From NCBI GenBank assembly GCA_041660605.1, contig JBAZWB010000001.1, positions 9,295-73,294 of the forward strand: a DNA stretch of 64,000 bases, written 5' to 3'. A program made the position numbers and the translations under genes. This document shows, piece by piece, positions 8,262-58,646 of this stretch. Below the pieces are notes generated by a model. It was not told where the DNA came from, made no database searches, and saw only the letters and a program-made list of their open reading frames with translations. Position 1 is the stretch's first letter, and every line of letters begins with the position of its first letter. The DNA comes from Patescibacteria group bacterium. Lineage in GTDB: Bacteria > Patescibacteriota > Patescibacteriia > UBA10025 > JAHIVO01.

Positions 8262-11412
<3,151 letters not shown>

Positions 11413-22649: not shown

Positions 22650-22982
22650 AAAGTTATTTATCCTCCCGGCAGTTGGTTTAATAACTGGCCACCGCGGAGG
22701 AGTATGGAGCTTCATCCGCCTTCGCCTTAAATATTACCGCAGTGATTCATTATTAAGATGTTAGCTTTGGTGGATTGCGCCATTAAAAATAAATGGAACT
22801 TCATACTCCCAATCTTACCGTTTTCGGGGAAGGTCTTCGGTAGGGTTGGGGAATGAGGGTCTTAAGAAGAAGAGAATATAATTGCGTTGCTTTTTACCGC
22901 CACCTCCCCAACCGACTAATATTTGTAAATTTAACGCTATTCACCCCTCCTTATCCAAGGAGGGGAAAGCCCATAGCGATTA

Positions 22983-25349
22983 ATGAACCAATTTATAAAT
23001 AAAGGGGAGGTGGCGGTAAAAAGTACTAAACAAAAGCATATGAAAAAAATAATTGTTTTAGCAGTCTTAATGATTATATTAATTCCGTTTATCACCGCAG
23101 AAGCCGAACCCGCCGTGCACCTAGTAATCAGTGAAATCAAAACAACCGGCGGCAGCGGCAAAAGCACTGACGAATTCGTTGAGCTTTATAATCCTACTGA
23201 AACTGATGTATCTATGTCCGGCTGGCGGCTGATAAAAAAAACCGCCTCCGGGAGCGAATATCCGCTGGTTGATGATTTTGGAGACAAAGCAGTAAAAGCC
23301 CATTCTTTTTTTCTGGTTGCACACCCCGTCGGCTACCTTGGAGAGGCGGCTCCGGATTTTTACTATACATCTACAAATTCCCTGGCAGACAATAACACGG
23401 TGGTTTTAATTGATAATAATAACCAGGCTGCAGATAAGGTTGGTTTTGGTTCGGCTGTGGATTTTGAGGGAGTAGCCGTGGGTAATCCTGGCGCCAATAA
23501 AAGCGTTGAACGGAAGGCCCGGGCTGATTCAACCGAAGAAACCATGTCTGAAGGCGGTCCGCATTATTTTCTAGGCAATAGCGAGGAGACGGATAACAAC
23601 GCACAGGATTTTATTAGTCGTTCGGTGGCCGAGCCGCAAAATTCTTCGTCAGAGCTGGAGTATCTGGATATAGAAATCCCGGAAATTCCCGAGGAACCCG
23701 CTGATAATAATTCAAATACTAATAGTCAAAATTCCAATGCGAATAAGGCAGTTGTTTATTCTGATAAAATTATTATTACTGAAATATTCCCGAATCCGGA
23801 AGGCGCTGACGACGGTGAATTCATCGAATTATTTAATAATGGCAATCAGGCGGTTGATTTATCAGGCTGGCAGGTGAGTGATGAGACCAGCCGGCATTTT
23901 ATAATTAAATCGGAGGATTTTGAAAATACCGTTATCGGCAGCGGCGGCTATTTTTTAATTAAAAAAGAAATTTCCGGCATTAGTCTGAATAACACCGGCG
24001 ACGCGGCAAAAATATACCAGCCAAATGGAAATTTATTAAACAGCGTAGAGTACACCGGTTGCCAGGAAAACAAATCTTTTAGTTTAATAAACAGCCAGTG
24101 GGTCTGGACTGATGAGCTTACTCCCGGCCGGGAAAATAAACTGGCAATTGAAAATACCTTACCCGAGGCGCAGTTTGAACTGGAAAAGGGAGACTATAAG
24201 GTTGGCCAAAAGATTGCCTTTGACGCTTCAGAATCAAGCGACGCTGATGGCGATGAACTGGAATATTTTTGGGAATTCGGCGATGAAGGCAGCGCGGAAG
24301 GAGTTAAAGCAGAACATAGCTATATCAAGGCTGGCGAATATACAGCCAGATTGCTGGTTCGCGACAGTAAAGACGGCGAGAGCGAGTTGGAACAAAAAAT
24401 ATCCATTACTGATTATGAATATTCGGGTAGAATAATATTAAATGAGCTGTTGCCCGCCTGTTCGCCGACTGACGCGGAATGTGAATTCGTAGAATTATTC
24501 AATGAAGATTCGCGCGATATAAACCTAGCGGGCTGGCAGGTGACTGATCTGAAAAAATATTTTACTTTTTCTGATAAAGACATTATCAAAGCAGGCGGTT
24601 TTTTAATCATTAAACGCCAGGACAGCAAAATTACGCTTAACAATGACAAAGATACGGTTTATTTAATTGATCCACGCGGGAAAATTATCAATGGCGTGGA
24701 ATTTACCAAAGCCAAGAAGGACTTCTCTTTCTCTTTTGATTTTGACTCTGGCCGGTGGCAATGGACAGAAAAATCGACGCCGGGCGAGGAAAACGAGATT
24801 ATATCAAATGAGGAAGTTGAGGCACAGTCGTTATTGGAGGAGGATAAAAATATCAATGGGGAAACAGTGGTATTAAATAGTTCGCCGATAGAAATGCCAA
24901 TTGGTGAAATAAAAGAAGATTCATTGGGCAAGATTCTAAAAATAACCGGCGAGGTGGAGAGCGCCAACAGCCGGGGCATTTACCTGATGGATGAGCTGGG
25001 CAACATTCTGCGTGTTTATATTCAGGCAAAGACAGGTATCCCGCAGCCCGAGGTCAGCCCCGGTGACACTATGACAGTCGTTGGATTGCTGGACAAAACC
25101 ACCGCTGGGTTGCGGCTCCTGCCGCGTACTGCGGGAGACATTACGGTAGAGAAGAAGAAAACCGAGGGGGAAGTGCTGGGCGCGTCCACTGAAAGCGAAA
25201 AGATTGATATTCCTGTTGATGATAAGAGCAGGCAAATCCGCTTGTACCTGATAATCGCCGGGGCAGCAGTTGTGGTATTAATCGCCGGTTTGGCGGTAAA
25301 AAGGTTTATTAATAAAAAGGATTCTGACAAGGAAGCGGCCTTAGATTGA
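22983..25349 (+). CDS. Secreted/anchored surface protein with 3 lamin-tail-like (LTD) repeats, a PKD-like domain and a C-terminal TM anchor (alternative start 23040, MKKIIVL)
   Basis: Three copies of ...SEI..(N)P.G.D..EF(I/V)EL(Y/F)N......L.GW.. ; PKD-like FDASESSDADGDELEYFWEFGDEGS; C-terminal hydrophobic helix followed by KRFINKK. Confidence 0.65.
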   Translation: MNQFINKGEVAVKSTKQKHMKKIIVLAVLMIILIPFITAEAEPAVHLVISEIKTTGGSGKSTDEFVELYNPTETDVSMSGWRLIKKTASGSEYPLVDDFGDKAVKAHSFFLVAHPVGYLGEAAPDFYYTSTNSLADNNTVVLIDNNNQAADKVGFGSAVDFEGVAVGNPGANKSVERKARADSTEETMSEGGPHYFLGNSEETDNNAQDFISRSVAEPQNSSSELEYLDIEIPEIPEEPADNNSNTNSQNSNANKAVVYSDKIIITEIFPNPEGADDGEFIELFNNGNQAVDLSGWQVSDETSRHFIIKSEDFENTVIGSGGYFLIKKEISGISLNNTGDAAKIYQPNGNLLNSVEYTGCQENKSFSLINSQWVWTDELTPGRENKLAIENTLPEAQFELEKGDYKVGQKIAFDASESSDADGDELEYFWEFGDEGSAEGVKAEHSYIKAGEYTARLLVRDSKDGESELEQKISITDYEYSGRIILNELLPACSPTDAECEFVELFNEDSRDINLAGWQVTDLKKYFTFSDKDIIKAGGFLIIKRQDSKITLNNDKDTVYLIDPRGKIINGVEFTKAKKDFSFSFDFDSGRWQWTEKSTPGEENEIISNEEVEAQSLLEEDKNINGETVVLNSSPIEMPIGEIKEDSLGKILKITGEVESANSRGIYLMDELGNILRVYIQAKTGIPQPEVSPGDTMTVVGLLDKTTAGLRLLPRTAGDITVEKKKTEGEVLGASTESEKIDIPVDDKSRQIRLYLIIAGAAVVVLIAGLAVKRFINKKDSDKEAALD

Positions 25350-27421: not shown

Positions 27422-27515
27422 CAAGTTGCATTACACCAAAAAGATGAACGCTTGGTTCCGATACCAGGCGTTTTTTTATATTTTTTTATTTAATACGCGG
27501 AGTAATTTCCCGGTA

Positions 27516-27580
27516 GCAGAGCAAGCTCTGCACCTACGCATATTAAACTGGGTAGGTGGCGAGCTTGCTCGCCTACGTAG
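27516..27580 (+). repeat. Double-hairpin repeat unit (GCAGAGCAAGCTCTGC..ACCTAC...GTAGGT..GGCGAGCTTGCTCGCC); an inverted copy lies at 61589-61650
   Basis: About 62-nt near-identical sequence at two loci in opposite orientation; forms a three-helix structure. Confidence 0.6.
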
Positions 27581-27611
27581 ATTTCTTCCTCAACAATTTT
27601 AAAAAGTAATC

Positions 27612-27755
27612 GTGGTTATCCCGCCATCGCCCTCGCCAGCTCGGGCTACGGCGGGATTGTTAACTTCGCTTAATTTTGTTCGTCATTTTATTAATTATTA
27701 AATACGTGGTTATCCCGCTATCACCTTCGCTCCACTCAGGTTCAGCGGGATTGTT
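27612..27755 (+). repeat. Two direct copies (27612-27661, 27706-27755) of a roughly 50-nt hairpin unit GTGGTTATCCCGCC...GGCGGGATTGTT
   Basis: Seen directly; each unit is an interrupted palindrome (ATCCCGCC / GGCGGGAT). Confidence 0.5.
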
Positions 27756-27837
27756 CAAGTAGCCAAATTTCCATCGCTGATTTTTTTATTTATGTATTTT
27801 TATTCAGCTCGTAAATTTTGCTACTTGAACAAAAAAA

Positions 27838-27906
27838 CCAGGGATAATCACTTGCGCCAGTCCTTTAACATTATATTAAAGAATAAGTGTAAGCGATTAT
27901 CCCTGG
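27838..27906 (+). repeat. Nested hairpin element CAGGGATAATC...(CTTTAACATTATATTAAAG)...GATTATCCCTG
   Basis: 11-bp perfect inverted repeat arms enclosing an inner palindrome. Confidence 0.4.
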
Positions 27907-27977
27907 AACATGTAATGAACTCTTTTCTCTTTTTATTTTTGTTTTTCTAGCCTCATTATAGCGCAAAAAATGGGTTT

Positions 27978-28237: not shown

Positions 28238-30604
28238 ATGTCTAACCCACTTGCGAATCCTAAGCCGGGCACTTACACAGATGTGCGCGAATTGGATTAT
28301 TTTAGCGTAGTTCCGCTTACTACGGTCGGTTTTCTTGTTAAGCTATTTGAATATTACCGGGCACAATGCACGGTACTCTACAACTTCGCCTTAAGCGGTG
28401 AGGGCAGCGGGCATCCAGGCGGCAGTATTTCTGCCGGCCGTATCATGCTGGCGCTTCTCCTGGAGTCCACGTCTTTTGACATCACCCAGCCGCGCCGGCC
28501 AGACGCCGATAGGTTCATCCAAGCTGAAGGCCATACTGCTCTTGGTGGATATGCTGTGCGCGCCTTGTTCGATGAATTCGCGCGTGTTGATCAGTGTAGT
28601 CTTCTGCAAGGGTTGGATGATGCTTTGCGTTTAAGACTGGTTGATCTGTTGCGCTTCCGGCACAATTCAGAACATAATCTGCCGCTTTCTGTTTTGCATA
28701 ACAGTAAATCGTTAGGCGGCCACCCCGATCCTTCCATTCCTTTTGTGGATCTGGCTACTGGCGCTTCGGGCGTTGGTGAGTGCGCCGCTGTTGGCAGAGC
28801 ACTAACTCTTCTGGACCATTTCGGCAGAAATGCTCCCTGGGTGCACTTCCTGACAGGCGAAGGGAGTATGACGCCTGGCCGTGTTGCCGAGGCGGCAGCT
28901 ATAGCGGCCAGCGGGCATATCTGGAACCTGGTAGGGCACGTGAACTTCAATAATTGCTCTATCAATTCGGACAGAGTGTGCCCGGCAGACGGCCAGCCTG
29001 GAGACTATATGCAATGCACTCCCGCTGGATTTTACCTGATGCATGGCTGGAATGTATATGAAGTTGACGGCACCAGTTTTCCGCAGATCATTATGGCTCA
29101 GCGCCTGGCGCGCCAGCAAAACAACGGTTTGCCGACGGCTATTGTGTATCACACCATCAAGGGCGAAGGTTACGGCATTGAAGGCAGGAAGTCGCACGGT
29201 GCCGGCCACCCCTTCTGCAGCGAAGCGTATTACCACTCACTGGCAGGGTTTGAAGCAGCCTTTGGCGTGCAGGTACCAAGGCGTGTCAATGAGGAGTCGC
29301 CCGTGGAGATTGAAAAACTGTATTTCAATACTCTCATGACCTTCCGCCAAGCAGCAGAAATGTTTACTGATTTGCCGCATTACGTTGGTGAGCGAATAGT
29401 GAAAAGCCATGATAATCTCGGGAGCCTGAACCGGACGCCTCGGAAGGGATGCCCGCAGTTAGGCCGTCTTTATGATGGCAGCGGAGGTATTTCTCCAGAG
29501 GAGATCCCCGCGGATCTGGTACTTCAGCCTGGCACCAAAACCACTTTACGCCTTCAGCAGGCCAGGGTACTTCGGCTTATCAATAAGATAACTGGCGGGG
29601 CGTTAATTTGCTGCTCTGCTGATCTGGACGAATCAACTTCTATTATTGAGGCAGCCAGGGATTTCGCTATGGGTTTTTGGGATGCGGCGGAAAATCCTTA
29701 TTCACGTTTGCTGGCTATCGGTATTCGTGAGGATGGCGGTGTTGGGGCAATGACCGGCGCGTGTGAATTCAATATGGGTGTTGTCGCGTCCTACGGCGGA
29801 TTTTTGTCGGCGATGGGACATACGGCAGCGCGCTTGCATTGCGATGGTGAGCAGGGATATTCGCTGGCTACCGGCAGTCACTACCGGACTGTAGTATTGG
29901 TTAACGCGCATACTGGTTATGGGACTGGTCCGGATGGTGCGTCACATGCTGATGGCCAGTGCACGCAGCTTTTTGAAGGTAATTTTCCCCTAGGATTTGC
30001 GATTACCCTGACACCCTGGAGTCCGGATGAATTGTATTCGCTGACAGTAGCTGGCTTGCTGAAACGACCGGCTGTACTGGCATCTTTCGTTACCAGGCCG
30101 GCAGAGGTTGTGCTGGATCGCGTGCAATATGGCCTGCCACCGGCGACTGCCGCGGCTAAGGGCGTTTACGCATTTCGTACGGCTGATCCTACCGACCCGC
30201 AGTACCGTGGCACTATCTTCCTCCAGGGGAGCGCGGTAACCTACGAGTTCATCCAGCATGTCCTGCTGAAGATTGACGAGGCTGGCTGGAAGATGAATGT
30301 CTTCTATATAGCCAGCCGCGAGCTCTATGAGCTTCTGTCCGCAGAAGAGCAACGCGCTATCGTGCCGGATTACTGCCTGGCTGAGGGCATGGGCATCACC
30401 GATTTCACCATGCCTACTATGGAATGGATGGTCGGCAGCCGCTTTGGCCGCGAATATTCGCTGCATGCTTTTTCCGCCGGATACTTTCCTGGCAGCGACG
30501 CCGCTTCGGCCGTACTGAAGGAAATGGGCATGGACGGTCTGTCGCAGTTGCTGAAGGTGCAGGAGTATGCCGAAGCATTTCACCAGAAGTTTCACATTAA
30601 ATAG
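28238..30604 (+). CDS. tkt: Transketolase, divergent and long (788 aa) with insertions
   Basis: SGHPGGS thiamine-diphosphate motif, DRFIQAEGHTALGGYA, TGASGVGECAAVGRA, GEGSMTPGRVAEA...NFNNCSINSD (GDG-X-N TPP motif), all co-linear with TktA; about 58% GC. Confidence 0.75.
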   Translation: MSNPLANPKPGTYTDVRELDYFSVVPLTTVGFLVKLFEYYRAQCTVLYNFALSGEGSGHPGGSISAGRIMLALLLESTSFDITQPRRPDADRFIQAEGHTALGGYAVRALFDEFARVDQCSLLQGLDDALRLRLVDLLRFRHNSEHNLPLSVLHNSKSLGGHPDPSIPFVDLATGASGVGECAAVGRALTLLDHFGRNAPWVHFLTGEGSMTPGRVAEAAAIAASGHIWNLVGHVNFNNCSINSDRVCPADGQPGDYMQCTPAGFYLMHGWNVYEVDGTSFPQIIMAQRLARQQNNGLPTAIVYHTIKGEGYGIEGRKSHGAGHPFCSEAYYHSLAGFEAAFGVQVPRRVNEESPVEIEKLYFNTLMTFRQAAEMFTDLPHYVGERIVKSHDNLGSLNRTPRKGCPQLGRLYDGSGGISPEEIPADLVLQPGTKTTLRLQQARVLRLINKITGGALICCSADLDESTSIIEAARDFAMGFWDAAENPYSRLLAIGIREDGGVGAMTGACEFNMGVVASYGGFLSAMGHTAARLHCDGEQGYSLATGSHYRTVVLVNAHTGYGTGPDGASHADGQCTQLFEGNFPLGFAITLTPWSPDELYSLTVAGLLKRPAVLASFVTRPAEVVLDRVQYGLPPATAAAKGVYAFRTADPTDPQYRGTIFLQGSAVTYEFIQHVLLKIDEAGWKMNVFYIASRELYELLSAEEQRAIVPDYCLAEGMGITDFTMPTMEWMVGSRFGREYSLHAFSAGYFPGSDAASAVLKEMGMDGLSQLLKVQEYAEAFHQKFHIK

Positions 30605-45960: not shown

Positions 45961-47959
45961 GATTTCTAATTGCTGCAAGCTGGTCTCTCAATAAAGCTGC
46001 TTTCTCGAAATCTAGATTCTTTGCTGCTATTTCCATTCTAGACTCAAGGTCTTCAATGAGATGCGGGATTTCTTCTTTGGGAATATTTTTGAAAAATGAC
46101 TGGGAGGAATCTTCCTCCTTAAGTCTTCCGCCGGCTAAGCGCGATTCTTTGATAGCTTTTATAATGGATTGCGGAGTAATGTGATGTTTTTTATTATAAT
46201 CTTCCTGCATTTTTCTGCGCCGCACGGTTTCTTTTATTGCCCTGTCCATTGAGCCGGTCACCTTGTCCGCATACATGATGATGTGCCCTTCGAGATGCCG
46301 TGCGGCGCGGCCCATGGTCTGCATCAGCGCGGTTTCCGAGCGCAGATAACCTTCTTTATCGGCATCCAGGATGGCAATCAGGGAAACTTCCGGCAGATCC
46401 AGCCCTTCACGCAAAAGGTTGATCCCCACCACTACGTCAAACTTCCCTAAGCGCAGATCACGCAGTATTTCCAGCCTTTCCATAGTGTCCACTTCAGAGT
46501 GCAAATACTGGACTTTTACGTCCAAATCAGCCAGATATTCCGTCAGATCTTCAGACATGCGCTTGGTCAGGGTGGTAACCAGCACCCGCTGTTTTTTCGC
46601 CACGGTTTTTTTAATTTCTCCTAAGAGGTCATCAATTTGATTTTTTGTCGTCCGGATTTCAATAGTCGGATCCAGCAAGCCGGTTGGCCGGATTAACTGT
46701 TCGACGATCTGGTCTGAAATTTCCTTCTCATATTCACTGGGCGTAGCGGAAGCATAGATAGTTTGCCTGGCGCGCTTTTTAAATTCTTCAAAAGTCAGCG
46801 GCCGATTGTCCATGGCAGCCGGCACGCGGAAGCCGAAATTAACCAGCGTTTCCTTGCGTGAACGGTCGCCGAAGTACATGCCTTTGATCTGCGGCAGGGT
46901 CATGTGCGATTCGTCTATGAACAGCAGGAAGTCTTTAGGGAAGAATTCAAACAGTGTATTTGGTGGAAGTCCCGGCCGGCGCCCGTCGAAATAGCGCGAG
47001 TAATTTTCAATGCCATTGCAAAAACCGATTTCCCGGATGGTTTCAATGTCATAGCGGGTCCGCTGTTCCAGCCGCTGGGCTTCCACTAGTTTGTTTTCGC
47101 TCTGGAATTTTTTGACCTGCTCTTCCATGTCGTGCTGGATTTGCTCCAGCGCGTTTTTCATCATCTCGTCCGGCGCCAGATAGTGCCGCGCCGGGTAAAT
47201 ATCCACTTCCGGCAGCTGAGCAACTATTTTGTTCGTTAGAGAATCAACTTCAGAGATTTTTTCTATCTGGTTGCCGAAGAATTCAATCCGATAAAAATTG
47301 TTTTCTGAGAAAGGCGGGAAGACTTCCAGGATTTCGCCCAGCACGCGGAAACGGCTGCGCCACAAATCAGTCTGGTTCCTCTGATACCGGTTGTTGACCA
47401 GCGCGTGCAGGATAATGTTGCGGTCGTAGTTTTGCCCGGATTTGAGATTTATCACATCGCGCTTGTATTCCGTGGGCGAGCCGAGGCCGTAAATGCAGGA
47501 AACCGAGGCCACGATGATCACGTCGTTTCTGGAGAGCAGGGCCTGCGTTGAGGCATGCCGCAGGCGGTCGATTTCTTCGTTGAGCTGAGTCTCCTTTTCT
47601 ATGTAGGTGTCGGTTCTGGGTATATAGGCTTCAGGCTGGTAGTAGTCGTAATAGGAAACAAAATAATTGACGGAATTATCAGGGAAAAAATCCTGGAATT
47701 CGCTGGCCAGCTGGGCAGCCAGCGTTTTATTATGCGAAATAATCAGCGTCGGTTTCTGCAATTGCTGGATGACGTTGGCCATGGTGAAGGTTTTCCCTGA
47801 GCCGGTTACGCCTAATAATGTCTGGTTGCGATGGCCTTTTTTTAGGCCAGCCACGAGCTTTTTAATGGCTTGAGGCTGATCTCCGGTTGGTTTGAATGGT
47901 GACTTTAATTTAAACTTCATAAGTAAATATACTATAACTTTGGCGGTCGGATTCGTCAA
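45839..47959 (-). CDS. uvrB: Excinuclease ABC subunit B
   Basis: Walker [10 protein letters not shown], helicase motifs, and C-terminal UVR motif [12 protein letters not shown]; the last roughly 45 codons are supplied by the repeat element. Confidence 0.9.
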
Positions 47960-47966
47960 AGGTTGG

Positions 47967-48102
47967 CCCCGTTAGAAAATTAGCCAATGGCCGTTTGATA
48001 ATAAACAATAATTTTATTTGAACCTTCTTTAATAACCAAAAAGATGTTTTATAATTTTCTAACGGGGTTGACAAAAAGAGGAAACCGTAGTAGGTTGTAG
48101 TG
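47967..48102 (+). repeat. Palindromic element copy 4 (terminal repeats CCCCGTTAGAAAATT / AATTTTCTAACGGGG, about 107 nt) with outward TTGACA-N17-TAGGTT
   Basis: Terminal repeats at 47967-47981 and 48053-48067; TTGACA 48068-48073; interior is the reverse complement of the copy-3 interior (for example ...CCTTCTTTAATAACCAAA.AGATGTTTTATAATT). Confidence 0.55.
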
Positions 48103-48129
48103 TTTAAAAGTGGTAAAATATATTTAACT

Positions 48130-51024
48130 ATGTCAAGGGAAACTTTTCATCCTAATTATGCCGATGCAGTTAAAGATGAATCAAATGATTCTAATTCTTT
48201 TGATAAAAAAAAGAATGTACATGGCAGTAAGTTGCAGGAAATTTTAAAATATTTTGACAGAACATTGGTACCGGGTCTGGATTTGAACGCAGTGTATCCA
48301 GAGTACGTAGGAAAAGAAGCTGATGTACAGGGTATAGATCAAGAGAAAGAGAAGGCGCTACTGGATCATTTAAATACTCAATATAAAGCCCTGACGGGGG
48401 GTCATGAAGTCCTCACAGAGATGAGCGAAGTTGAGCAACAGAAAGTTGGAGGATTAATAGAGGAGGTTGTTGAACAATATTGGAAGCCCACCATATCAAT
48501 GCACACGAAAGAGGCATTAGCAGATTTTATAGATAATCTCATTGTTCAACTCAATCAGGAAGGGGTTGAGCAGGTTTTGGAAAAAAGCTTAGATTTAAAC
48601 GAGAAAGGGAATATTAATAAAGTGGGTCATTGGATTAAACTTTTAGAAGAGCTTTATTGGCGTTCTGAGCGAATTGATCCGGAATCGAGAGAAGAGTACT
48701 TTCGGGATTTTGAATCTGAAGATGCCGTCGTGAAAAAGATAGTTGGAGAATTGATGGAAAAAATTAAGAACGAATCCGAGGGAAACTATTTTTTGAATGA
48801 ACGCATTAAATATCTCGTCGAGTGTATTAAAAAGGGAGAAGTCCCTGAAGTCGACACCTTACCGTTTGATTTTGATTTTGGGCACTATGCTAAATGGCAA
48901 GAAAATGGGAGACTCGCGGTGACACCAATGGGTGACGATGGTGATATTGAGGATGATATTGAAATGTATACAAAACTTGAGAATACTTTTTTAGAGGAAA
49001 TGGGTGCAACTCACAGCGATAAAGAAAAGAGCGCACTTCAAAAAGAAATGCAGGAAACACTCAGTGCGGTTGCCAATAAAATCCGTACTTCATATTACTT
49101 TGAGGAGTTGAAGCCATATCAACTCCGTTCTTTTACTGATCAGGTTGGGGACGATAAAGATAAATCATCTGATCAATCGCTATATGATTTTGAATACCTG
49201 CATTCACGTCAGATGAGGAAACAAATTGAAAAAGATTTTGGGATAGTGGTTGAGTATATTAATTTGCCAGTCCGGAATAAATTTTTTCAATTTATTAAAG
49301 AGAAAAATATTAAAGATATCGAACCAGCAAAGAATTTTTCCAAAAAATATGGGGAAGCAGGGCTGGTAACATTTTTATCTTTGGCACAGGATCCGACAAT
49401 AGGCAACAAACTGGTAGAACTTGGTAATCGCCTGCCTGAAGATGATGCTTATCGATTATTTGATCAGTATCATAGACTCATCACAAGCGCTAGCAGCAAA
49501 GCAGAAAAAATCCAAACGCTTCTTGCGCAGCAATACCCAGAAATAAATTTATCCAGGGAAGAACTTTCTGATTGTTTCATGGTACGCGCAAAGGATTTAT
49601 TAAATGAAAGCTTCAATAAAATGGAGGATGGAAAGCTAGATATTGATCAGGTTCTTGCAGAACTTAATCAGGAAACGGCAATACAAGAAGTTTTACGTGT
49701 TCAGTTCATGAAGATTGCCGAGCTTCTATCGAAAGATGATGTTGACTTGGAGACATATAACCATACGCAAGAAATGGTTATAAAAAGTATCGGAGAGTCA
49801 GGTCTAGTGAGCGAGGCGGCATATTTGCGTGCTTTAAACGCCATGGGCAAACTAAAACCCATGCCGGAATTATACTGGAAAGTTGACCGGGAGCCGGAAG
49901 AGTACAATAAACGTTTGGGTGTTAATGTACCGGAGGTACTGAAAAGAGTAGGCCAAGGTGGCAACGAAAAGACCTTATTGGAATTCGGTCCGGGTAGCGG
50001 TCTGGCCAAGCACAAACTGCGGTTATCCGGTGCGGCTGATAATTTTACGGAATTTGCCATGAGCGACGCGCTTTATTACGATTTAGCTGAACCAATAAAA
50101 CATTTAATTGATTTTGATAAAATCCAGGCCAAACTGGGCAAAGAATTAAATGCACAGGACAAGCAATCATTAATTGAGTATATAAAACGGACTATCGTCA
50201 TAAAAGTCGGCCAGACAGCTGTTGATAAGATTGAGTATGATCAGGAGTTTCAAAGTGATATTGCTCATAGTCCCAATGCCCTGAAAGAGTATATAAAAAA
50301 ATCCGGACATAAAGTTTCTCTTGCCGACACGGTGCCGACTGATCAAGCCGTAGAAACTCCGGATGGCCCAATATATGCTGAAAAATTTGAAGTAGCAAAA
50401 CAATCTCCAGCTTGGCAGGAAGCACGACGGCTTTTCATGGGTGAAGTGGAAAAATATTTGCGGGACGATTTTGATGAGCAGGATGTTTATGAAATATTGA
50501 ATGCCCATCCAGCCGGAATCATGATCGGGGACTTTAATGACGTTACAAAACTGAAAAATGACCAATTGGATTTTGCCCTGGGCGTCAGGTCGACGGTCTA
50601 TGTGGAGCGCGAGCAATATCCTGAATTTATTAAAAACGTGATAGCAAAATTAAAAGATGGAGGAATCTACATTGACGATAATGTGAGGGAAAATTTCGGC
50701 CGGTACTATCGCTTAGCAGAACTGAAGCAGGTGCAGGAGGACTTAGTTGAGCTGAAACGAAAAGGTGGGATAGATTTTGATGTCACTATTTCTCTGGTTA
50801 TCGGGCGTGGCGTGGCAGAAGAAGATTATAAAAAGGACGATGCGCCTATCGCCGTCGTTATTGCTAAGGGTAAAGCTGATCTATCAGTCGTTTCTGAAAA
50901 TTTATTGAAGTCCAGCAAGTTAGTCGGTTTGGACGAAGTGGTTGCTAATGGCGATTATCTGAAAAGCCTGGATCAGTCTGGTCGGGTTAAAAAATCAATT
51001 AATACATTACCACGAGCCGCTTAG
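48130..51024 (+). CDS. Large hypothetical protein (964-974 aa; track start is the GTG at 48100)
   Basis: Long low-GC ORF; possible SAM-binding motif I-like stretch KTLLEFGPGSGLAKHKL; otherwise no motif recognised. Confidence 0.55.
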   Translation: MSRETFHPNYADAVKDESNDSNSFDKKKNVHGSKLQEILKYFDRTLVPGLDLNAVYPEYVGKEADVQGIDQEKEKALLDHLNTQYKALTGGHEVLTEMSEVEQQKVGGLIEEVVEQYWKPTISMHTKEALADFIDNLIVQLNQEGVEQVLEKSLDLNEKGNINKVGHWIKLLEELYWRSERIDPESREEYFRDFESEDAVVKKIVGELMEKIKNESEGNYFLNERIKYLVECIKKGEVPEVDTLPFDFDFGHYAKWQENGRLAVTPMGDDGDIEDDIEMYTKLENTFLEEMGATHSDKEKSALQKEMQETLSAVANKIRTSYYFEELKPYQLRSFTDQVGDDKDKSSDQSLYDFEYLHSRQMRKQIEKDFGIVVEYINLPVRNKFFQFIKEKNIKDIEPAKNFSKKYGEAGLVTFLSLAQDPTIGNKLVELGNRLPEDDAYRLFDQYHRLITSASSKAEKIQTLLAQQYPEINLSREELSDCFMVRAKDLLNESFNKMEDGKLDIDQVLAELNQETAIQEVLRVQFMKIAELLSKDDVDLETYNHTQEMVIKSIGESGLVSEAAYLRALNAMGKLKPMPELYWKVDREPEEYNKRLGVNVPEVLKRVGQGGNEKTLLEFGPGSGLAKHKLRLSGAADNFTEFAMSDALYYDLAEPIKHLIDFDKIQAKLGKELNAQDKQSLIEYIKRTIVIKVGQTAVDKIEYDQEFQSDIAHSPNALKEYIKKSGHKVSLADTVPTDQAVETPDGPIYAEKFEVAKQSPAWQEARRLFMGEVEKYLRDDFDEQDVYEILNAHPAGIMIGDFNDVTKLKNDQLDFALGVRSTVYVEREQYPEFIKNVIAKLKDGGIYIDDNVRENFGRYYRLAELKQVQEDLVELKRKGGIDFDVTISLVIGRGVAEEDYKKDDAPIAVVIAKGKADLSVVSENLLKSSKLVGLDEVVANGDYLKSLDQSGRVKKSINTLPRAA

Positions 51025-51788
51025 GAGCCAGATGGTAAGGTTGACCAGAGGAAGTTAAATAGAATTTTAAAGTTGTTGGCAATCTCTTCATTGTCGATCA
51101 GTACGCCAACGGCGTTTTTCTTTTGGAAAGTTATCAGTGAAATTTTGTGCCCGCTGATTTTAATATCCATCCGGAAAGGGAACTTATTGACGGGGATTAA
51201 TCTTGCCTCAATAAATTTATCAGAGTTAGTTTTATTTAATGCATTGGTATCCGGCGAGATAACACGATTGAACAATTTTTTTTGCACGCGAGTTTTTATG
51301 TATATTGGCGCGTAATCTGGAATATATTCTAGAAGGTCGCCCTTTTCCTCTATGCTGTCAATTGGTTGGTTATTTGACAGAAGTTCCTCGTAGATTTTTA
51401 TTATACCCTCTTGGCCCTCGAAGAAACGAACTCCGGGCTTGTTCATCGTTAATCGGTAGGTTGAGGCAAGTTGCTCAAAATTACTTTGCAGCACTTTTTT
51501 TTGCTGGTTAAGTTGGTGCTCATTTTTTTCTACTAAAGCTTTCAGCTGTTCCGGCGGCTCTACGGTAAATACTTTCTTCCCACGCTCTTCAGTTTCCAAA
51601 ACTAGGCCTTTCTTAATGAGGTCGCCAAGGATGTCGTAGGTATTGCCCCGTTTATAGGGGACTTTGGGCAGGAGCTTGCCCATATTAGCTTTGCCCAATA
51701 ACAATAAGGCCTCATAAACGGTGGCCTCTTTTTCTGAAAGGCCAATTTGGTTGAGAGTTTTAGCAATGGGGGAGGTAGGAGGGGGCAT
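51021..51788 (-). CDS. TrmB-family HTH transcriptional regulator (paralogue 1)
   Basis: N-terminus IGLSEKEATVYEALLLLGKANMGKL...GLV winged helix of the TrmB type; its C-terminus resembles that of the 56377-57135 protein. Confidence 0.55.
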   Translation of the reverse strand: MPPPTSPIAKTLNQIGLSEKEATVYEALLLLGKANMGKLLPKVPYKRGNTYDILGDLIKKGLVLETEERGKKVFTVEPPEQLKALVEKNEHQLNQQKKVLQSNFEQLASTYRLTMNKPGVRFFEGQEGIIKIYEELLSNNQPIDSIEEKGDLLEYIPDYAPIYIKTRVQKKLFNRVISPDTNALNKTNSDKFIEARLIPVNKFPFRMDIKISGHKISLITFQKKNAVGVLIDNEEIANNFKILFNFLWSTLPSGS

Positions 51789-51988
51789 ATTATTTGAGGT
51801 TAATCCCTGTGGATAAGTCTGTCCACAAGAGTTTTTTAGTTAACTTAGAAAGTCTGCTTACGGGTTAATTCTAGCAAACTAATTAATTAATGTCAATATT
51901 CAATGACATTTTAGGTTAATAATATTTAATAAATTAATCCCTTTATCACAAGCGAGTATCACTTTTTAAATTCTATTGGCATTTACCG

Positions 51989-52017
51989 TTGACAAAAATA
52001 CTAAGTGGGTATATACT
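51989..52017 (+). promoter_or_regulatory. Near-consensus sigma70 promoter TTGACA-N17-TATACT with no ORF downstream
   Basis: TTGACA 51989-51994, TATACT 52012-52017. Confidence 0.5.
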
Positions 52018-52024
52018 GATTCGT

Positions 52025-52520
52025 TACGCTAAAAATTCGTTCTTTCGGAAGAAGCTCTTTTTCAAAAGCACTGAAGCCAAATGACTATGAAGCGTCATCA
52101 AACATTGGTGGCAATTCAAGCCGGCTTATCAGTCGAAAGTAGATCAGCTGTTTAATCAAGGGTTGATGCAAGTAATAGGAGAGAGACAGCCCTTGGCAAA
52201 GCAACCATTTATTTTCTGGCGATACTCGTCAGTGGCGCTCCCGGCGCTCGCAAACACCGCGAGACCAGGAGAACAGTGTTGAGTATCAAATGAGTGATGA
52301 GGAGGGAACTTTGACAATTGAATAAATGATATGCGCCGCCTTTCATAAGCATCGGGGCGGGCACCGGAGAGAGCACCTTCGCTTCATATTTATATGCGGC
52401 ATGGTGAAAGCGGCAGTGAAAACTGCTGAAGAGCTTAGAAAACTTTTAGAATTCATTAACATGAATATATACCAATAAAAGGGACTCTCTCATTAAATGA
52501 GCATGAGTCCCTTTTAGTTT
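52025..52520 (+). ncRNA. Candidate noncoding RNA of about 490 nt, family unidentified
   Basis: Strong promoter, no ORF above 50 codons, many local hairpins, ends at a bidirectional terminator (GGGACTCTCTCATTAAATGAGCATGAGTCCC then TTTT). Confidence 0.3.
52481..52520. terminator. Bidirectional rho-independent terminator
   Basis: Hairpin flanked by A-run and T-run on both strands. Confidence 0.5.
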
Positions 52521-52893
52521 GGTTTGGGCAAAGAGAGGAGAGAGAAGCAGTGAAGGCCTAATAGCAATATACAATATTCGAGGCCACATATCTGTCTCTT
52601 CTCTTTGCTCTTTTAGAAAGTAATTGTTCTTTTCCTCCTACGCGTAAACGCTATGGAGGACACAGTCAGTGTTTGAAGTTTTCCATTTGGAATTATTGGA
52701 TCGGCATAAACGACTTGCGCTTGTTGCAAGCGTCATGCGGGTCAACGAAGGAGAGAGGATAATGGAAAATTTTTAGCCAGACGGTTAGCCCGTTGTCGGG
52801 AATCCAAGATTTCCGGTTCGCGCAACAAGTTCGCGGATCGGGAGGACGGCAAACGAGACACAGACGCTAGCCCCAAGTGCGCCCCCACACCTT

Positions 52894-53166
52894 TTAGTCT
52901 TCGTGAATTGAGTGTTGGATACGTCGTTTCAATTGGCCCCACGCCTTCGCATGTTTCTTGAGCTGGCGTTCACGTTCGTACGCATCTTTTCTGGAAGCGT
53001 ACGCTTCATAGTAGATAATTTTCCACGGCCGAAACGAACGGGTATAGGTACTTTCGCCATTATTGTGCTGTATTAATCTTTGTTGCGGCTGTTTGGTGAA
53101 GCCAATGTACTTTTTACCCGGATATTTAACACTCTTTAATATGTACATAAAGTAATACATATACAT
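52894..53166 (-). CDS. Small GIY-YIG nuclease-domain protein (UPF0213/COG2827-like); alternative start at 53148
   Basis: YILKSVKYPGKKYIGFTKQPQQRLIQHNNGES...WKIIYYEAY...ERERQLKKH matches the GIY..YIG..R..H.N..E pattern. Confidence 0.7.
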   Translation of the reverse strand: MYMYYFMYILKSVKYPGKKYIGFTKQPQQRLIQHNNGESTYTRSFRPWKIIYYEAYASRKDAYERERQLKKHAKAWGQLKRRIQHSIHED

Positions 53167-53244
53167 ATTATATCATGGTAACTAAAAGGTGTGGGGTGCA
53201 GTTGGGAATAAACTCAACTGAAAAATCAAAAACAAAGTCCCGTC

Positions 53245-54660
53245 GTGGAAACACAGATGGGCGAGGAGAGGAAAATGTTTGTACGAGTTAGAATGTCCAG
53301 CGTCGCAGAGCCAGGAAAGCTCTGGACCGGCGATACGCCAGAGGATGGTGCTGTCGCTGAAGTTGAACTTGTCGAGTTGCACTGCGAATGCGGTGCGTCA
53401 ACCCGAAAGTTCAGAATTTCCAACGAGCTACCCGTGCAGCTTGTTGGCGAGGCAATTGATGTGAGTCAGTTGCCGATTGCCTACATCTCTTGCGGAGGTG
53501 TGGGATCGACCCGTGACTCCGTAGAGGCATTGGAGGCATGGAATTGGTCGGGTCGCGTCGGTGGCTCGGTCATAATTGATCCACTCGTTGTTCTCGAGGG
53601 ATATGTTTCTTGTCCTCCGCCTACGAAGAATGGATTCAAGTGGATATGCTTGTATAGTGGATCCACTTTGAACGGATTCGTCCTTGTCCGTTTGGATAAG
53701 AGTGGAAATCTCCACCCGGATCACTGTCCCCTCGTCCGTACGGTAGATCAGGCACGGGAATGCCCGCCTTGTAGGGAGAAACGCATTTCCGCGGCCTTGA
53801 ATGGTGTCGAGGAGATGTTCATCATTGAAACCGACGTCGAGTATCTTAAGGTCGGCGAAGGTGAAGAGCTCCCTGCTCACGCCGTTCGGGCATGGGCAGC
53901 TGCACCCACGTTGGAGGGGGCAAAGAAGGGAAAGATTTCTTTCCTCTATGAAGGTGGGGCAGGTGGCCGTCGTGGGCCGCAAGCCACCGGTCATCTTCAG
54001 GACTTATGTTGCCTGAGGGTGAAGATCAAAAATGGAAGAGTTTCACATCTTCTCTGGGTTATGAAATCCGGGGAGATGATAGAGGACACTCATTATGAGT
54101 TCATTGGTGAGTGCCAGATCGCTGGTATCAACCTTAAGGTTGGCCAGTGGTTTCCGGACTACCTAATACCAAAGGAGGCCGAAACTCCTTTGGTAGAATC
54201 GGACCCAGTACCCCTTTTCTTAAATGAGGAGCTAATTTCGCTCGCCAATAGAGCGAAAGACGTTTCTGGTGAGAGTGACTACGCTCTTGCTAACTCAATT
54301 TTTGCCTACCTTTTGGAAAAGTTTTTCCAGGAAGGCGAGAATTCAGGTCTCGAATTAGAGCTCGAAACACAGGACCTAGAAGGTCGTGGTCCGAGTGAGG
54401 TCTTCTATGACCTTCTGGTCGCCAGAGCGGGTGAGAGCACGCTCTGTATTCCGGTACCTTTGCTGGAAAGCAAGAGCGCCTTGACTGCAGCAAAAGCTGC
54501 AGCGAAGGTGTTTCGTCGGGAGCACGAGCGTGATTCTAGATCGGATCCGACCGAGATGAAAATTCTCTGGCAGGAAGTACTTGAAAAGGTGGGAAGAGAG
54601 GCTCTTGAGGCTTCCTTCTACCACCTGGTAGATAAGGTAGAAATACCTTTTCTCGAGTAG
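53245..54660 (+). CDS. Hypothetical protein A (471 aa), GC-rich, with Cys clusters (CECG...CPLV...CPPC)
   Basis: Coordinates taken from the track; GTG start; conserved leader AAACAAAGTCCCG.CG...GGGCGAGGAGAG; followed by the hairpin GGAGGTGACGTTTGCACAAACGCCACCTCC. Confidence 0.5.
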   Translation: METQMGEERKMFVRVRMSSVAEPGKLWTGDTPEDGAVAEVELVELHCECGASTRKFRISNELPVQLVGEAIDVSQLPIAYISCGGVGSTRDSVEALEAWNWSGRVGGSVIIDPLVVLEGYVSCPPPTKNGFKWICLYSGSTLNGFVLVRLDKSGNLHPDHCPLVRTVDQARECPPCREKRISAALNGVEEMFIIETDVEYLKVGEGEELPAHAVRAWAAAPTLEGAKKGKISFLYEGGAGGRRGPQATGHLQDLCCLRVKIKNGRVSHLLWVMKSGEMIEDTHYEFIGECQIAGINLKVGQWFPDYLIPKEAETPLVESDPVPLFLNEELISLANRAKDVSGESDYALANSIFAYLLEKFFQEGENSGLELELETQDLEGRGPSEVFYDLLVARAGESTLCIPVPLLESKSALTAAKAAAKVFRREHERDSRSDPTEMKILWQEVLEKVGREALEASFYHLVDKVEIPFLE

Positions 54661-54842
54661 TTCTTTTTGAAATCAACGCATTGCACATGTGCTTGGTTTC
54701 AGCAATCGGAGGTGACGTTTGCACAAACGCCACCTCCCTCTTTTCCAGTTCGTGAGTACACATTCTCGGACTGAAAAAGAAACCAAAACAGAAACAAAAA
54801 ACAAAGTCCCGACGGTTTTCACCGTACGGGCGAGGAGAGAGT

Positions 54843-55829
54843 ATGAGAACGAGTAGTAGAGGAAATGAGTCACAGCTAATCGAGGGCGCGAGAGTCATGG
54901 CGCCCTTTGATGAATCTATCTTCTCAGACATCATTTCAGCCGTTAAGGGTTGCCGGAGCTGGGAGTTACTGGCAACCGAAGGAATGTGGGGACGCAAAGG
55001 GTTTCTAGTCCTCGCCGGGCCTAGCAACGGCGTACAACTGTACGTAGAATGCGATCATATCCGACGGCCTGGGAGAACGACGGAGATGGTGTGGATTTGG
55101 GGTTGGGCACCAAACCCATTTTCACGGTTGGTAATGGTTGAACCCAATTGCCAGTCTGAAGCGGATTTGCTATCCATCCTTCGATGGGTCGCTAACCGTG
55201 CCGGGATCAGCACGGGGAAACTAATTGGAATTCGGGAAATTCCTGGGTTCCAGTCTGAGGAGAGTTTTCCTTTCCCCTGGCCCAGCGTCGGTGAGAAAGT
55301 GAACCACCAAGACGGCTGGTTCACTCGTTCCAAGATTGTATATCGGGTTGAAAAACCCGAATGGTTTGAAGGGGATGCTTTCCGTATCGCGGAAGGTATT
55401 TACATCACCTTCCCAGACGGTTCCTACCGCTTGGTCCAATCGGCTAAGGAGTTTTTCTCCTGGCCGGGGTGGTCGCTTGGTCCATCGATCCCGACGGATA
55501 TACCCGGCGTTATCTCGGGATATGGGGGGCCAACTCACCGGCAGGGCGACCTGATGGTGTGGCCGGCTCCCGGTGATCTAGGTGAGTGGGAAGGAGAATT
55601 GAGTTTCCGGGGCTTAACCCTGGATACTAGTCACTTTCTTTTGGTAGACGAAAGTCTGCCGGAGGGGAAGGGGTCGCTCGACCGTCATACGGTCGAAAGA
55701 AACGATGATGGTTCGGTGGTGATTACTCACCCCGAACACGCTACCGTGGAACTTCCGGCAGGGAAGTATATTATTGGGCTCTTGCCCGGTACTTCCCGGC
55801 CATTTAGCCGAGACAGGGATCTCGACTAA
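54843..55829 (+). CDS. Hypothetical protein B (328 aa), GC-rich, Trp/Gly/Pro-rich
   Basis: Same conserved 5' leader and the same 3' hairpin as gene A. Confidence 0.5.
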   Translation: MRTSSRGNESQLIEGARVMAPFDESIFSDIISAVKGCRSWELLATEGMWGRKGFLVLAGPSNGVQLYVECDHIRRPGRTTEMVWIWGWAPNPFSRLVMVEPNCQSEADLLSILRWVANRAGISTGKLIGIREIPGFQSEESFPFPWPSVGEKVNHQDGWFTRSKIVYRVEKPEWFEGDAFRIAEGIYITFPDGSYRLVQSAKEFFSWPGWSLGPSIPTDIPGVISGYGGPTHRQGDLMVWPAPGDLGEWEGELSFRGLTLDTSHFLLVDESLPEGKGSLDRHTVERNDDGSVVITHPEHATVELPAGKYIIGLLPGTSRPFSRDRDLD

Positions 55830-56167
55830 TATTGCACTAATGGAGGTGACGTTTGCACAAACGCCACCTCCTTCATTTCCAGCCTATCACCCTACGCTAA
55901 AGCTTCGGGTGGTTGTCTGAAAAAGAAATTTTGTCTCCCCGCACCGGATCAGGCGCTGCGTTTGTTCATTACATTACGAATAAGCGCGGCCTCCTCTCTC
56001 CAGCCTGGTCCGATGCGGGGAGGGAATTATTAAATAATAGCGGTTAGATGTCACAAACCGCGCCGTCGGAGATAGATTTTTTCCGCTGGTTTTTTATGTT
56101 ATAATGATTTTAGCGAATCTCTGTCTATGTACGGAGTTTCGTTAATTCATCTTTCATAGGAGGATAT

Positions 56168-56269
56168 ATGGAAGATTTACACGTACGTCCGCACCTTTAC
56201 GTTCGCCCACGTCCGCCATCTGTAGATATGATGAACGGTAATGTGAAGCTGAACGACGACGAGAACTGA
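56168..56269 (+). CDS. 33-aa Pro/Arg-rich peptide MEDLHVRPHLYVRPRPPSVDMMNGNVKLNDDEN (not in track)
   Basis: AGGAGGATAT RBS directly upstream, extended -10 TGTTATAAT at about 56128, own terminator GGAGTGCCAACCGGCACTCCTTTTTT. Confidence 0.4.
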   Translation: MEDLHVRPHLYVRPRPPSVDMMNGNVKLNDDEN

Positions 56270-56295
56270 GAACCACCCTGTTCTAACTTTCTCGT

Positions 56296-56322
56296 CAGAA
56301 TTTCTGGAGTGCCAACCGGCAC
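56296..56322 (+). terminator. Rho-independent terminator of the peptide gene
   Basis: GGAGTGCC-AACC-GGCACTCC followed by TTTTTT. Confidence 0.6.
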
Positions 56323-56376
56323 TCCTTTTTTAATATAAAAACAGCCATTTATTCATTTAATAATGAGTGTGACTTT

Positions 56377-57135
56377 CTATTCTTCAGGCAGGCTATTCCA
56401 AAGCGTCATAAAAATAAAACACAGTATCTGCGCCATTGCGGGATCCTCAATGAGTACTACCTTCAAGCTTTCCCCTTCTATGGACGCGATAGCAATGTTG
56501 TCCCCAAAAAGCTGGATACCCGCTGGAATGTTAATATTTTCTTTAAGGAAACGAAATTTTCGGTAGTTGCCTAATGTTTCGCTAAATCGCTTATGCGCAA
56601 GAATTCTACGATCGGTAATAGCGTACGCTGTTGTTGATTGTTTTATGCGTTTCAAAGTTAAACGGCGGTATACCTCTTCCGCTTTCATAATTGGGAAGAA
56701 TGTATCAAGCGACCCGAACCAGTAATTGTCTTTATTTTCTTTGATTAGCTTATCAATGATTGCACGAGCGCCCGCTTTTCCCTCATAGTACGTAACTTGT
56801 GTAGAGGGGGTTTTGTGCTTGATCGCCTGGGTGAGTGCAGGAATGAGCTTTTCAATTACATTTTTGTCCTGCACAATCTTTTCTTCTTCTTGGTTGAGAA
56901 ATTCTCGGAATGCTTCAGTCGGCGGTGTGGCGGTGATTAACTGTCGTTTACCTTTGATAATACGGGAAATCAATCCTCTTTTTTGCAACTTTTCAAGATA
57001 AAAATAAACCGTACTGCGCCTGATGCCCGTAAGGCGAGCCAAATTCGCCGGATTATTGGGCTCGTGCTGCAAACAGGCGAGGTAAATAGCTATTTCCTTC
57101 TCCTCTAAACCTAGCTTTTTTAGAAGTTTTTCCAT
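56377..57135 (-). CDS. TrmB-family HTH transcriptional regulator (paralogue 2)
   Basis: LGLEEKEIAIYLACLQHEPNNPANLARLTGIRRSTVYFYLEKLQKRGLI; C-terminus ILCFIFMTLWNSLPE parallels ILFNFLWSTLP of paralogue 1. Confidence 0.55.
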   Translation of the reverse strand: MEKLLKKLGLEEKEIAIYLACLQHEPNNPANLARLTGIRRSTVYFYLEKLQKRGLISRIIKGKRQLITATPPTEAFREFLNQEEEKIVQDKNVIEKLIPALTQAIKHKTPSTQVTYYEGKAGARAIIDKLIKENKDNYWFGSLDTFFPIMKAEEVYRRLTLKRIKQSTTAYAITDRRILAHKRFSETLGNYRKFRFLKENINIPAGIQLFGDNIAIASIEGESLKVVLIEDPAMAQILCFIFMTLWNSLPEE

Positions 57136-57366
57136 TTGAAGGGTTATTATCTTTTAAAGTGACGACATTTATTGACACTATTATTGTATCATTATTGGTT
57201 AAAAAATGCAATATTTCTGCTAAATTTTGATAAATTCAAAAAATTTGTATAATCTTAGTTGACATATATTTCGGATAACTTACACTGATATATTAAAACA
57301 AATAAAGAAATAGTTATTTGAAAACCAGCTTTTAATTGAGCTGCGACTTAAAACAAAGGAGTATCT

Positions 57367-57927
57367 GTGAGACATGCATCTGTTACCAGATCAAAAAGCA
57401 TGACCGTCAACGGTAGCGACCCCCGGTGGAGAACCATCAACGGAGATAGTTACCACTTCGTAAATGAAAGGCTTGATATTAAGGACTTTCCAATTTCTAA
57501 TCCCGTGAAGCGTGAAGTTGAGTATGAAGAAATCACATTCGACCGCTCAGTAACTACACAAGAAATCTTAGATACGATTAGGTCTCAAGATTTGTGGCAT
57601 CCCGAAAGGGATGAGGCCGAGACGTACTTCGATGCTCTTTCAAACTCCAAAAGGCAATTAGACGAGTCTCCCATCGTTGCTTTGTGTGGTACCTTTATTG
57701 GTGGGAATCATAGGTATGATCGTGGCGTCTCTTGCATTATTGCCAACAAGGATGGACGTAGCCTGAGCCTCTTTTATACTGGTAAGGCATGGGTCCAGAA
57801 GTGCCGTTTCCTTGTTGTTCATAAACGTACAGGCGTTAATAATGATATATATGACTCTCCCGAGGACGTCATACTCCAATGCTATATGCTGCCAGCGATC
57901 AAAGCGACCCTAGATTTAATTCGATAA
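57367..57927 (+). CDS. Hypothetical protein (186 aa)
   Basis: GTG start with AAGGAG 5 nt upstream; no motif recognised. Confidence 0.4.
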   Translation: MRHASVTRSKSMTVNGSDPRWRTINGDSYHFVNERLDIKDFPISNPVKREVEYEEITFDRSVTTQEILDTIRSQDLWHPERDEAETYFDALSNSKRQLDESPIVALCGTFIGGNHRYDRGVSCIIANKDGRSLSLFYTGKAWVQKCRFLVVHKRTGVNNDIYDSPEDVILQCYMLPAIKATLDLIR

Positions 57928-58064
57928 ACTTGATCTTTCAAACTCGCTATACTGAAAAAGGATTAGCGAGTTTTTTTATATAAAAAGCACAATTTTTTTT
58001 ATTTACAGCAGTGCAGTATCGTCACTTTTTAGTCCGCCGTTAATCTGATATAATAACGGTAATT

Positions 58065-58646
58065 ATGATCAGTCATTTAACGGGAAAAATCATTGCCAAG
58101 ACAGCCCGTTCTGTCGTACTTGATGTGAATTCAGTGGGCTACGAGGTAGCTGTCCTACCGATTTTATTGGAAAAAGCGAATAAGGGCGAAGAACTGTCTT
58201 TGTTCACTTATCTTTGCGTACGCGAAGATGCCATGGATTTATACGGCTTCAAAACCACGGAAGAAAAAAATTTCTTCCACGATTTGATCGGCGTTACCGG
58301 TATCGGGCCAAAATCCGCCATGACCGTTATGTCGCTGACTTCTTTGCGCGACCTGAAAAAAGCCATTGCCCACGGCGACGCCTCGTTGCTAACCAAGGTT
58401 TCCGGCATTGGCAAGAAAACTGCTGAACGCATTATATTGGAATTAAAAAACAAAGTAGAGATAAGTTTGGGCCAAGGCGAAGAGCTGGGAATGAGCAGCG
58501 CTGACAGCCAGGCCATAGACGGGCTGATCAGCCTGGGCTATACCGCCCGGGAAGCCCGGGAAGCGCTTCAGCAAGTGGATAAGAAAATCACGGAAGCCAA
58601 AGACCGGATAAAGGCTGCCCTGAAATTGCTTGGGAAGAATAAATAG
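58065..58646 (+). CDS. ruvA: Holliday junction branch-migration complex subunit RuvA
   Basis: MISHLTGKII...VLDVNSVGYEV N-terminus, HhH motifs (GIGPKSAM, VSGIGKKTAERI), C-terminal domain III. Confidence 0.85.
   Translation: MISHLTGKIIAKTARSVVLDVNSVGYEVAVLPILLEKANKGEELSLFTYLCVREDAMDLYGFKTTEEKNFFHDLIGVTGIGPKSAMTVMSLTSLRDLKKAIAHGDASLLTKVSGIGKKTAERIILELKNKVEISLGQGEELGMSSADSQAIDGLISLGYTAREAREALQQVDKKITEAKDRIKAALKLLGKNK

Follow-up and report, generated by a model that had tools for sequence, protein, structure and literature searches.

A putative transcription unit of about 220 nt, which carries a 33-codon open reading frame (ORF), lies between uvrB and ruvA in the region 47959-58065 of the window, the window being the whole stretch of 64,000 nucleotides of DNA that was analysed. 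Among the species-representative genomes scanned, the UvrB proteins closest to that of the window (72-77% identity) are all from Patescibacteria MAGs, and in eight of the closest genomes a frame made up of uvrB and ruvA-femAB is conserved. The spacer between uvrB and ruvA measures from about 1.85 kb to 9 kb in relatives and 10.1 kb in the window, with unrelated content, while in the closest genome (L012) no ruvA was found within the 10 kb fetched. Because the length of the spacer varies and its content is unrelated, it was deduced from these comparisons to be a hypervariable integration hotspot.

Upstream of the unit are two orphan ORFs of 471 and 328 aa (53245-55830), which have a G+C content of 0.53 compared to about 0.42 in the surrounding DNA and whose coding regions are among the strongest-folding 223-nt windows of the whole 64 kb. 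Neither protein was matched in Pfam, NCBIfam, PHROG or PADLOC, and their AlphaFold models, sought for peptide-modifying folds, were unusable (pLDDT 36 and 39). A 41-nt hairpin element, GGAGGTGACGTTTGCACAAACGCCACCTCC..., follows both ORFs (54708-54748 and 55842-55882), and the same TT-GCAC-AA apex was observed in hairpins after the ORFs of the sole homologous locus (L011, at about 1385-1410, 1428-1450 and 1985-2010). A very stable 98-nt hairpin (55931-56026) is present just upstream of the promoter of the unit; its folding energy is −58.7 kcal/mol (z −8.1) as + strand RNA and −47.1 kcal/mol as minus strand RNA, the + strand being favored because of G-U pairs. On the other side, the next gene (56377-57135) is of the TrmB family and lies on the opposite strand, convergent to the unit.

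Other elements of the region were also recorded. An ORF-poor gap of about 1.1 kb beside the first TrmB-family gene (window 51976-52890, +) is conserved at the DNA level in L012 at 5090-5948 (−) and L019 at 5521-6518 (−), with nhmmer E values of 5e-72 and 3e-59. This conservation is confined to these two relatives, in which that TrmB gene also has an ortholog (65% and 45% identical at the protein level). A TTGACA-17-TATACT promoter is conserved in the gap, the motif GGAGAGAG recurs, compensatory changes are present in several helices, and one hairpin resembles a terminator. The gap matched no Rfam family and is a candidate large structured non-coding RNA, of which a two-block pattern scan of the JGI metagenomes gave no further copies. 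A perfect inverted repeat of 16 nt, CCCCACACCTTTTAGT / ACTAAAAGGTGTGGGG (52883-53196), surrounds the 90-aa GIY-YIG gene (52894-53166, minus strand), and a TGATATAAT box abuts the first ATG of this gene. Another TGATATAAT box (58046-58054) ends 10 nt before the ruvA ATG, a spacing which suggests that the ruvA mRNA is leaderless or nearly leaderless. Elsewhere in the window, the segments 22801-23100 and 27441-27940 are among the most structured and lie upstream of ORFs of equal length (788 aa; 22983-25349 and 28238-30604), for which they may be leader RNAs. The 23S rRNA match at 8266-11406 spans 3,141 nt compared to a model of 2,925 nt, which suggests an insertion or intron, and an unannotated 66-aa ORF with a perfect AGGAGG-N5-ATG (11992-12192) adjoins the rRNA operon.

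Signals of the transcription unit and its reading frame

The first signal of the unit, obtained by direct reading, is an extended −10 box, TGTTATAAT, at 56097-56105 on the + strand, preceded by a T-run with no good −35 element. Against an expectation of 2.6, the motif TGNTATAAT was found at 6 sites in the window. Four of the five other copies are situated at most 35 nt upstream of the SAM riboswitch or of a gene start (ruvA, the GIY-YIG gene and a gene whose end is at 38246), and TGNTATAAT was therefore taken to be a real promoter element in this genome. The Shine-Dalgarno sequence AGGAGG (56158-56163, +) is separated from the ATG by a 4-nt spacer (ATAT); the ribosome-binding site of the preliminary description is thus present, with a spacer of 4 nt rather than the 6 nt given there. 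The arrangement AGGAGG-N3-9-ATG was found seven times in the window compared to 3.2 expected, three of these being starts of long genes, in the form AGGAGG-N5-8-ATG.

The ORF itself (ATG...TGA) occupies 56168-56269 on the + strand, with the stop codon at 56267-56269, and encodes MEDLHVRPHLYVRPRPPSVDMMNGNVKLNDDEN. No longer in-frame version exists, and the ORF had already been called as a gene by a gene caller on public contigs. It is followed by an intrinsic terminator (56306-56331, +) with an 8-bp stem, 6 G-C pairs, a tetraloop and TTTTTT. The hairpin of this terminator, at 56306-56325, reads GGAGTGCC-AACC-GGCACTCC and is followed directly by T6. It folds with −15.9 kcal/mol (z −7.0) and ranks among the best in the scanned region. 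Since no U-tract follows the hairpin on the minus strand, it is the + strand RNA that should end at this position.

In a first-order Markov simulation of the 193-nt transcript body, the chance of obtaining AGGAGG, ATG and a closed ORF of at least 25 codons was 7e-5 with the local composition and 6e-4 with the composition of the window. Promoter box, Shine-Dalgarno sequence, start codon, closed frame and terminator were all found in the correct order for a stand-alone gene, and the ORF, the extended −10 box, the AGGAGG and the dedicated terminator were each confirmed at the places where they had first been reported. On the basis of the box, the enrichment of the Shine-Dalgarno sequence with ATG, the simulation and the + strand terminator, the stand-alone unit of about 220 nt was accepted as real at the level of sequence signals and is unlikely to be due to chance.

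The coding properties of the frame were also analyzed. Its codon log-likelihood was +2.4, compared to −5 to −26 in the other five frames, and the G+C content at codon positions 1, 2 and 3 was 0.65, 0.29 and 0.53, respectively, the coding-like order GC1>GC3>GC2 that is usual for genes here. The codon score corresponds to the 13th percentile of real-gene windows, which is low for a gene, and 33 codons are too few to decide. The peptide contains 4 prolines in 33 residues (12%), two of them consecutive, and carries a net charge of −2 with an acidic C-terminal half. By direct reading, it has no Cys, no Thr and a single Ser, it is hydrophilic with a longest apolar run of 3 residues, and no signal peptide or hydrophobic N-terminal segment is apparent in its beginning, MEDLHVRPH.... 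A type I toxin was considered and set aside, the peptide being hydrophilic and not a membrane-spanning hydrophobic one.

Predicted RNA structure and relatives of the unit

The predicted transcript is strongly folded, with a minimum free energy (MFE) of −71.6 kcal/mol compared to −50.4 kcal/mol for shuffles (z −5.0). In addition to the terminator, three stable stem-loops are predicted on the + strand. The 5'-terminal one (56113-56142; −11.8 kcal/mol, z −4.2 relative to shuffles) begins at the predicted transcription start, 7-8 nt past the −10 box. The second is a 10-bp hairpin, ATCTTTCATA / TATGGAAGAT (56149-56176; −9.6 kcal/mol, z −3.8), which holds GGAGG in its 8-nt loop and the AUG within its stem and which recurs in the fold of the whole transcript. 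The third (56258-56296; −16.0 kcal/mol, z −3.7) covers the last codons and the stop codon. A stretch of 23 nt, at about 56175-56197, is left unpaired in the predicted fold.

A compact, structured transcript of this kind, with an intrinsic terminator at its end, would also be in keeping with a non-coding RNA, and the structure in this respect weighs against a small-protein gene. The unit could be a structured small regulatory or dual-function RNA of about 220 nt that acts by base-pairing, the ORF being incidental or secondary, a reading that we hold to be possible, if on the unlikely side. The pairing could be in trans, with the 23-nt unpaired stretch available for it, or in cis, the partner being the 3' end of the mRNA from the convergent TrmB-family gene. 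For this mRNA no U-tract terminator was found on the minus strand from 56376 to 56300, ahead of the point at which it would run antisense into the unit. With regard to pairing in trans, positions 56180-56198 are complementary to the GIY-YIG mRNA at 52970-52988 (15/18, extended to 16/19), where 0.02 matches were expected in the window for an 18-nt query with up to 3 mismatches; the local-alignment score of the same match is, however, only about 1.8 sd above shuffles. The 16/19 complementarity is thus of borderline significance and is taken as a lead only. An RNA-RNA duplex prediction against all translation-initiation regions was discarded, as it was dominated by implausible long-range pairings.

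In size and layout, the unit resembles the dual-function RNAs SR1/SR1P (Bacillus subtilis), SgrS/SgrT (Escherichia coli) and RNAIII/delta-hemolysin (Staphylococcus aureus). These are roughly 200 nt, strongly structured and equipped with an ORF of 26-43 codons led by a Shine-Dalgarno sequence, and their own promoter and intrinsic terminator have counterparts here. SR1, SgrS and RNAIII are, however, conserved within genera and have demonstrated targets and products, whereas this putative unit, from an uncultured Patescibacteria genome, has no homolog in the collections searched. Further points against an RNA are that the fold energy, once corrected for G+C content, places the transcript only in the top 5.7% of the 223-nt windows of this genome, that no described Rfam family matched it even at E values up to 10, and that no homologous sequence was found from which covariation could be judged. 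A perfect AGGAGG before the ATG of a closed 33-codon frame would also be hard to explain if the transcript were purely non-coding.

No homolog of the peptide was found among approximately 15 billion predicted proteins or in the viral, metagenome, phage and plasmid collections. In a word-indexed search of 5.8 billion protein clusters, for which the query was padded to 40 aa, the peptide matched only itself, and a full HMMER search of 1.84 billion representatives returned only the peptide itself and one further entry, P0002. The latter was rejected as a homolog: its contigs are short and poor in genes, and the ORF is a spurious one called over a tandem repeat of 42 nt. It corresponds to L009 324-518, where the repeat has 4.6 copies, and illustrates how a database artefact can be mistaken for a homolog in the form of a repeat peptide. 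Nothing was found when viral contigs and JGI metagenomes were scanned with back-translated patterns, when phages and plasmids were searched by tblastn or when phages were searched by blastn, and a literature search for the motif gave nothing relevant.

The related loci were consistent with these results. The peptide and its DNA are absent from the eight closest genomes that share the uvrB/ruvA frame, and among 80 uvrB-anchored loci tblastn produced only noise and nhmmer no match. Orthologs of the adjacent TrmB-family protein (83%, 76% and 55% identity) have different neighbors and no peptide, and a TrmB-family scan of species-representative genomes yielded nothing. For the 328-aa upstream protein, only one homolog was found worldwide (57% identity); the genes after it are unrelated, and no peptide lies downstream. 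In that locus, the opposite strand carries EDLHVYP, a 6/7 match that was judged to be due to chance. The public assemblies of the population that carries the unit stem from two or more distinct samples, and over 12-16 kb they are 100% identical to the window at this locus. Since all of these assemblies are identical and thus offer no synonymous or nonsynonymous variants, selection on the frame is not measurable. Judged by these searches, the peptide is an orphan and is restricted to a single population of Patescibacteria.

This distribution also bears on the proposal that the unit is neutral or near-neutral DNA, in which a promoter-like box, a Shine-Dalgarno-like hexamer and a terminator, perhaps left over from earlier insertions, met in an island of fast turnover and have no selected function. 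Such an origin would be in keeping with the complete orphan status of the unit, with its codon score at the low end for genes, and with a hotspot whose content differs in every related genome and whose spacer can be as short as about 1.85 kb or exceed 10 kb. It would also account for the absence of the unit beside both the TrmB-family orthologs (83% and 76%) and the 328-aa homolog. Against it, all four signals in the right order and spacing are improbable by chance, each hairpin is far more stable than its shuffles, and the terminator, as noted above, is one of the best found in the scan. Neutral DNA was considered an unlikely explanation.

The proline-arginine motif of the peptide

The segment RPHLYVRPRPP of the peptide aligns without gaps to KPPYLPRPRPP of oncocin (6/11) and RPPYLPRPRPP of PR-39 (7/11). 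These alignment scores were reached by at most 0.5% of composition-preserving shuffles. Class I proline-rich antimicrobial peptides (PrAMPs) bind the exit tunnel of the ribosome in reverse orientation and block the first elongation step. Their precursor is secreted, proteolysis sets the peptide free, and the target cell takes it up (SbmA). The PrAMPs assembled here as a panel, with the sequence of oncocin confirmed, contain 25-49% proline and have net charges of +2 to +11. The class I core consists of a Tyr(or Arg)-Leu pair set in Pro-Arg repeats, in the register Y-L-P-R-P-R-P-P; the Tyr-Leu pair stacks in the A-site cleft, and the N-terminal residues are needed for binding (PMC4797290).

When the peptide was compared to this core, it was found to share with oncocin, metalnikowin, pyrrhocoricin, Bac7 and PR-39 the RPRPP, an Arg/Lys-Pro six residues upstream and an aromatic and an aliphatic residue between the two. 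The Y-L/I-P-R-P-x-P-P core that had been proposed for it was not recovered, as the peptide reads L-Y-V-R-P-R-P-P and only the RPRPP and the RP six residues upstream match. The order of Tyr and Leu is inverted, Val stands in place of the following Pro, and the N-terminal part that is required for binding (PMC4797290) has no counterpart. The peptide also differs from the class in its proline content and negative charge, in its acidic C-terminal half, and in that a bacterium would make it internally, with neither a signal peptide nor the processing of a precursor. Furthermore, its score against the PrAMP panel (37) is exceeded by at least 15 of the 1,527 open stretches in the six frames of the same window. 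From the inverted pair, the missing N-terminal counterpart, the composition and the better-scoring frames, it was concluded that the PrAMP likeness is background, no better than chance in this window, and the description of the peptide as PrAMP-like was abandoned.

The second proposal, that consecutive prolines with arginine form a stalling context, was examined against published data. According to Starosta et al. 2014 (PMC4176338), strong diprolyl contexts have Asp or Ala before, or Trp, Asp, Asn or Gly after, the Pro-Pro, or contain at least three successive prolines. An Arg before the proline run enhances stalling in the context RPPP, and no stalling is caused by RPP (PMC4176338). The motif present here is R-P-P-S, with two prolines only and with Ser, which is not a strong following residue, and it is accordingly expected to be weak or non-stalling (PMC4176338). 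A role as a leader or arrest peptide was suggested as well. A short ORF with Arg before Pro-Pro would be a likeness to SecM, MifM, TnaC and ErmCL and to the CadC-type pauses that depend on EF-P. Unlike in those systems, the terminator follows directly after the ORF (37 nt past it) and is succeeded by a convergent gene. Such a role does not fit because no co-directional gene is found downstream of the terminator. The conservation among relatives that an arrest peptide would be expected to have was also lacking, with no relative in any collection searched.

The third suggestion was that of a RiPP precursor. The peptide resembles such precursors in being short, in lying within a variable island and in adjoining proteins of unknown function. 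It differs from them in that no maturase or other modifying enzyme, protease or exporter was recognized nearby, where the 471-aa and 328-aa proteins matched no family, and no leader/core signature is present, and the residue counts given above (0 Cys, 0 Thr, 1 Ser) were likewise counted against this suggestion. Taken together, the readings in which the peptide acts on the ribosome, as a PrAMP-like tunnel binder or as an arrest or leader peptide, or is a RiPP precursor, are favored by the oncocin and PR-39 alignments and by the effect of Arg in the RPPP context. In view of the background scores, the composition, the motif and the genomic context, they were considered very improbable. It is hardly to be expected, at a probability that we place very low, that a Patescibacteria episymbiont encodes an oncocin-like tunnel-binding microprotein, or that the peptide arrests its own synthesis in an EF-P-sensitive manner and modulates translation in the cell or its host. 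If true, this would be the first case of a PrAMP analogue that a bacterium encodes and makes on the ribosome with no posttranslational modification. A ribosome-targeting peptide would be important, but nothing measurable here favors it.

A proposed lineage-specific small-protein gene

The explanation that we consider best, and to which we give about an even chance, is that the unit is a lineage-specific, independently transcribed small-protein gene. In support of this assignment, promoter, Shine-Dalgarno sequence, ORF and terminator are correctly ordered, and the promoter motif is also found ahead of the SAM riboswitch, ruvA and other genes. Of the six frames, only that of the ORF has a positive codon log-likelihood, the gene call on public contigs was independent, and AGGAGG with ATG marks true starts in this genome. 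The evidence on the other side consists of the short Shine-Dalgarno spacer, the burial of the AUG in a stem, the low codon score and the lack of a homolog in the collections searched, with which any sign of purifying selection is also lacking.

For such a gene, the following course of expression is proposed. The extended −10 promoter would start an mRNA of about 220 nt at about 56112/56113. This message would be bracketed, and probably stabilized, by the 5'-terminal stem-loop and the two 3' stem-loops, the last of which is the terminator. The GGAGG of the Shine-Dalgarno sequence would be displayed in the loop of the 10-bp A/U-rich hairpin, and melting of this hairpin would be needed to free the AUG. 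The ribosome would then make the 33-residue hydrophilic peptide, which has a net charge of −2 and neither a signal sequence nor a membrane segment and which would probably be disordered and stay in the cytoplasm. If the peptide is functional, its function would most likely be the binding of a larger protein rather than an action on the ribosome. Because the unit is located in a hotspot and was found in a single population, the small-protein gene would be either young, possibly of de novo origin, or an accessory gene brought in with the island.

The significance of the unit is limited. The case of its peptide indicates that a "PrAMP-like" reading of a short Pro/Arg motif can fail a background control. 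In itself, the unit would add one to the many small ORFs or small RNAs, unannotated and restricted to a lineage, that variable bacterial islands contain, and as such it matters little. Its value, should transcript or peptide data become available, could be a modest one, that of a candidate for a young or de novo gene in a CPR bacterium with a reduced genome.
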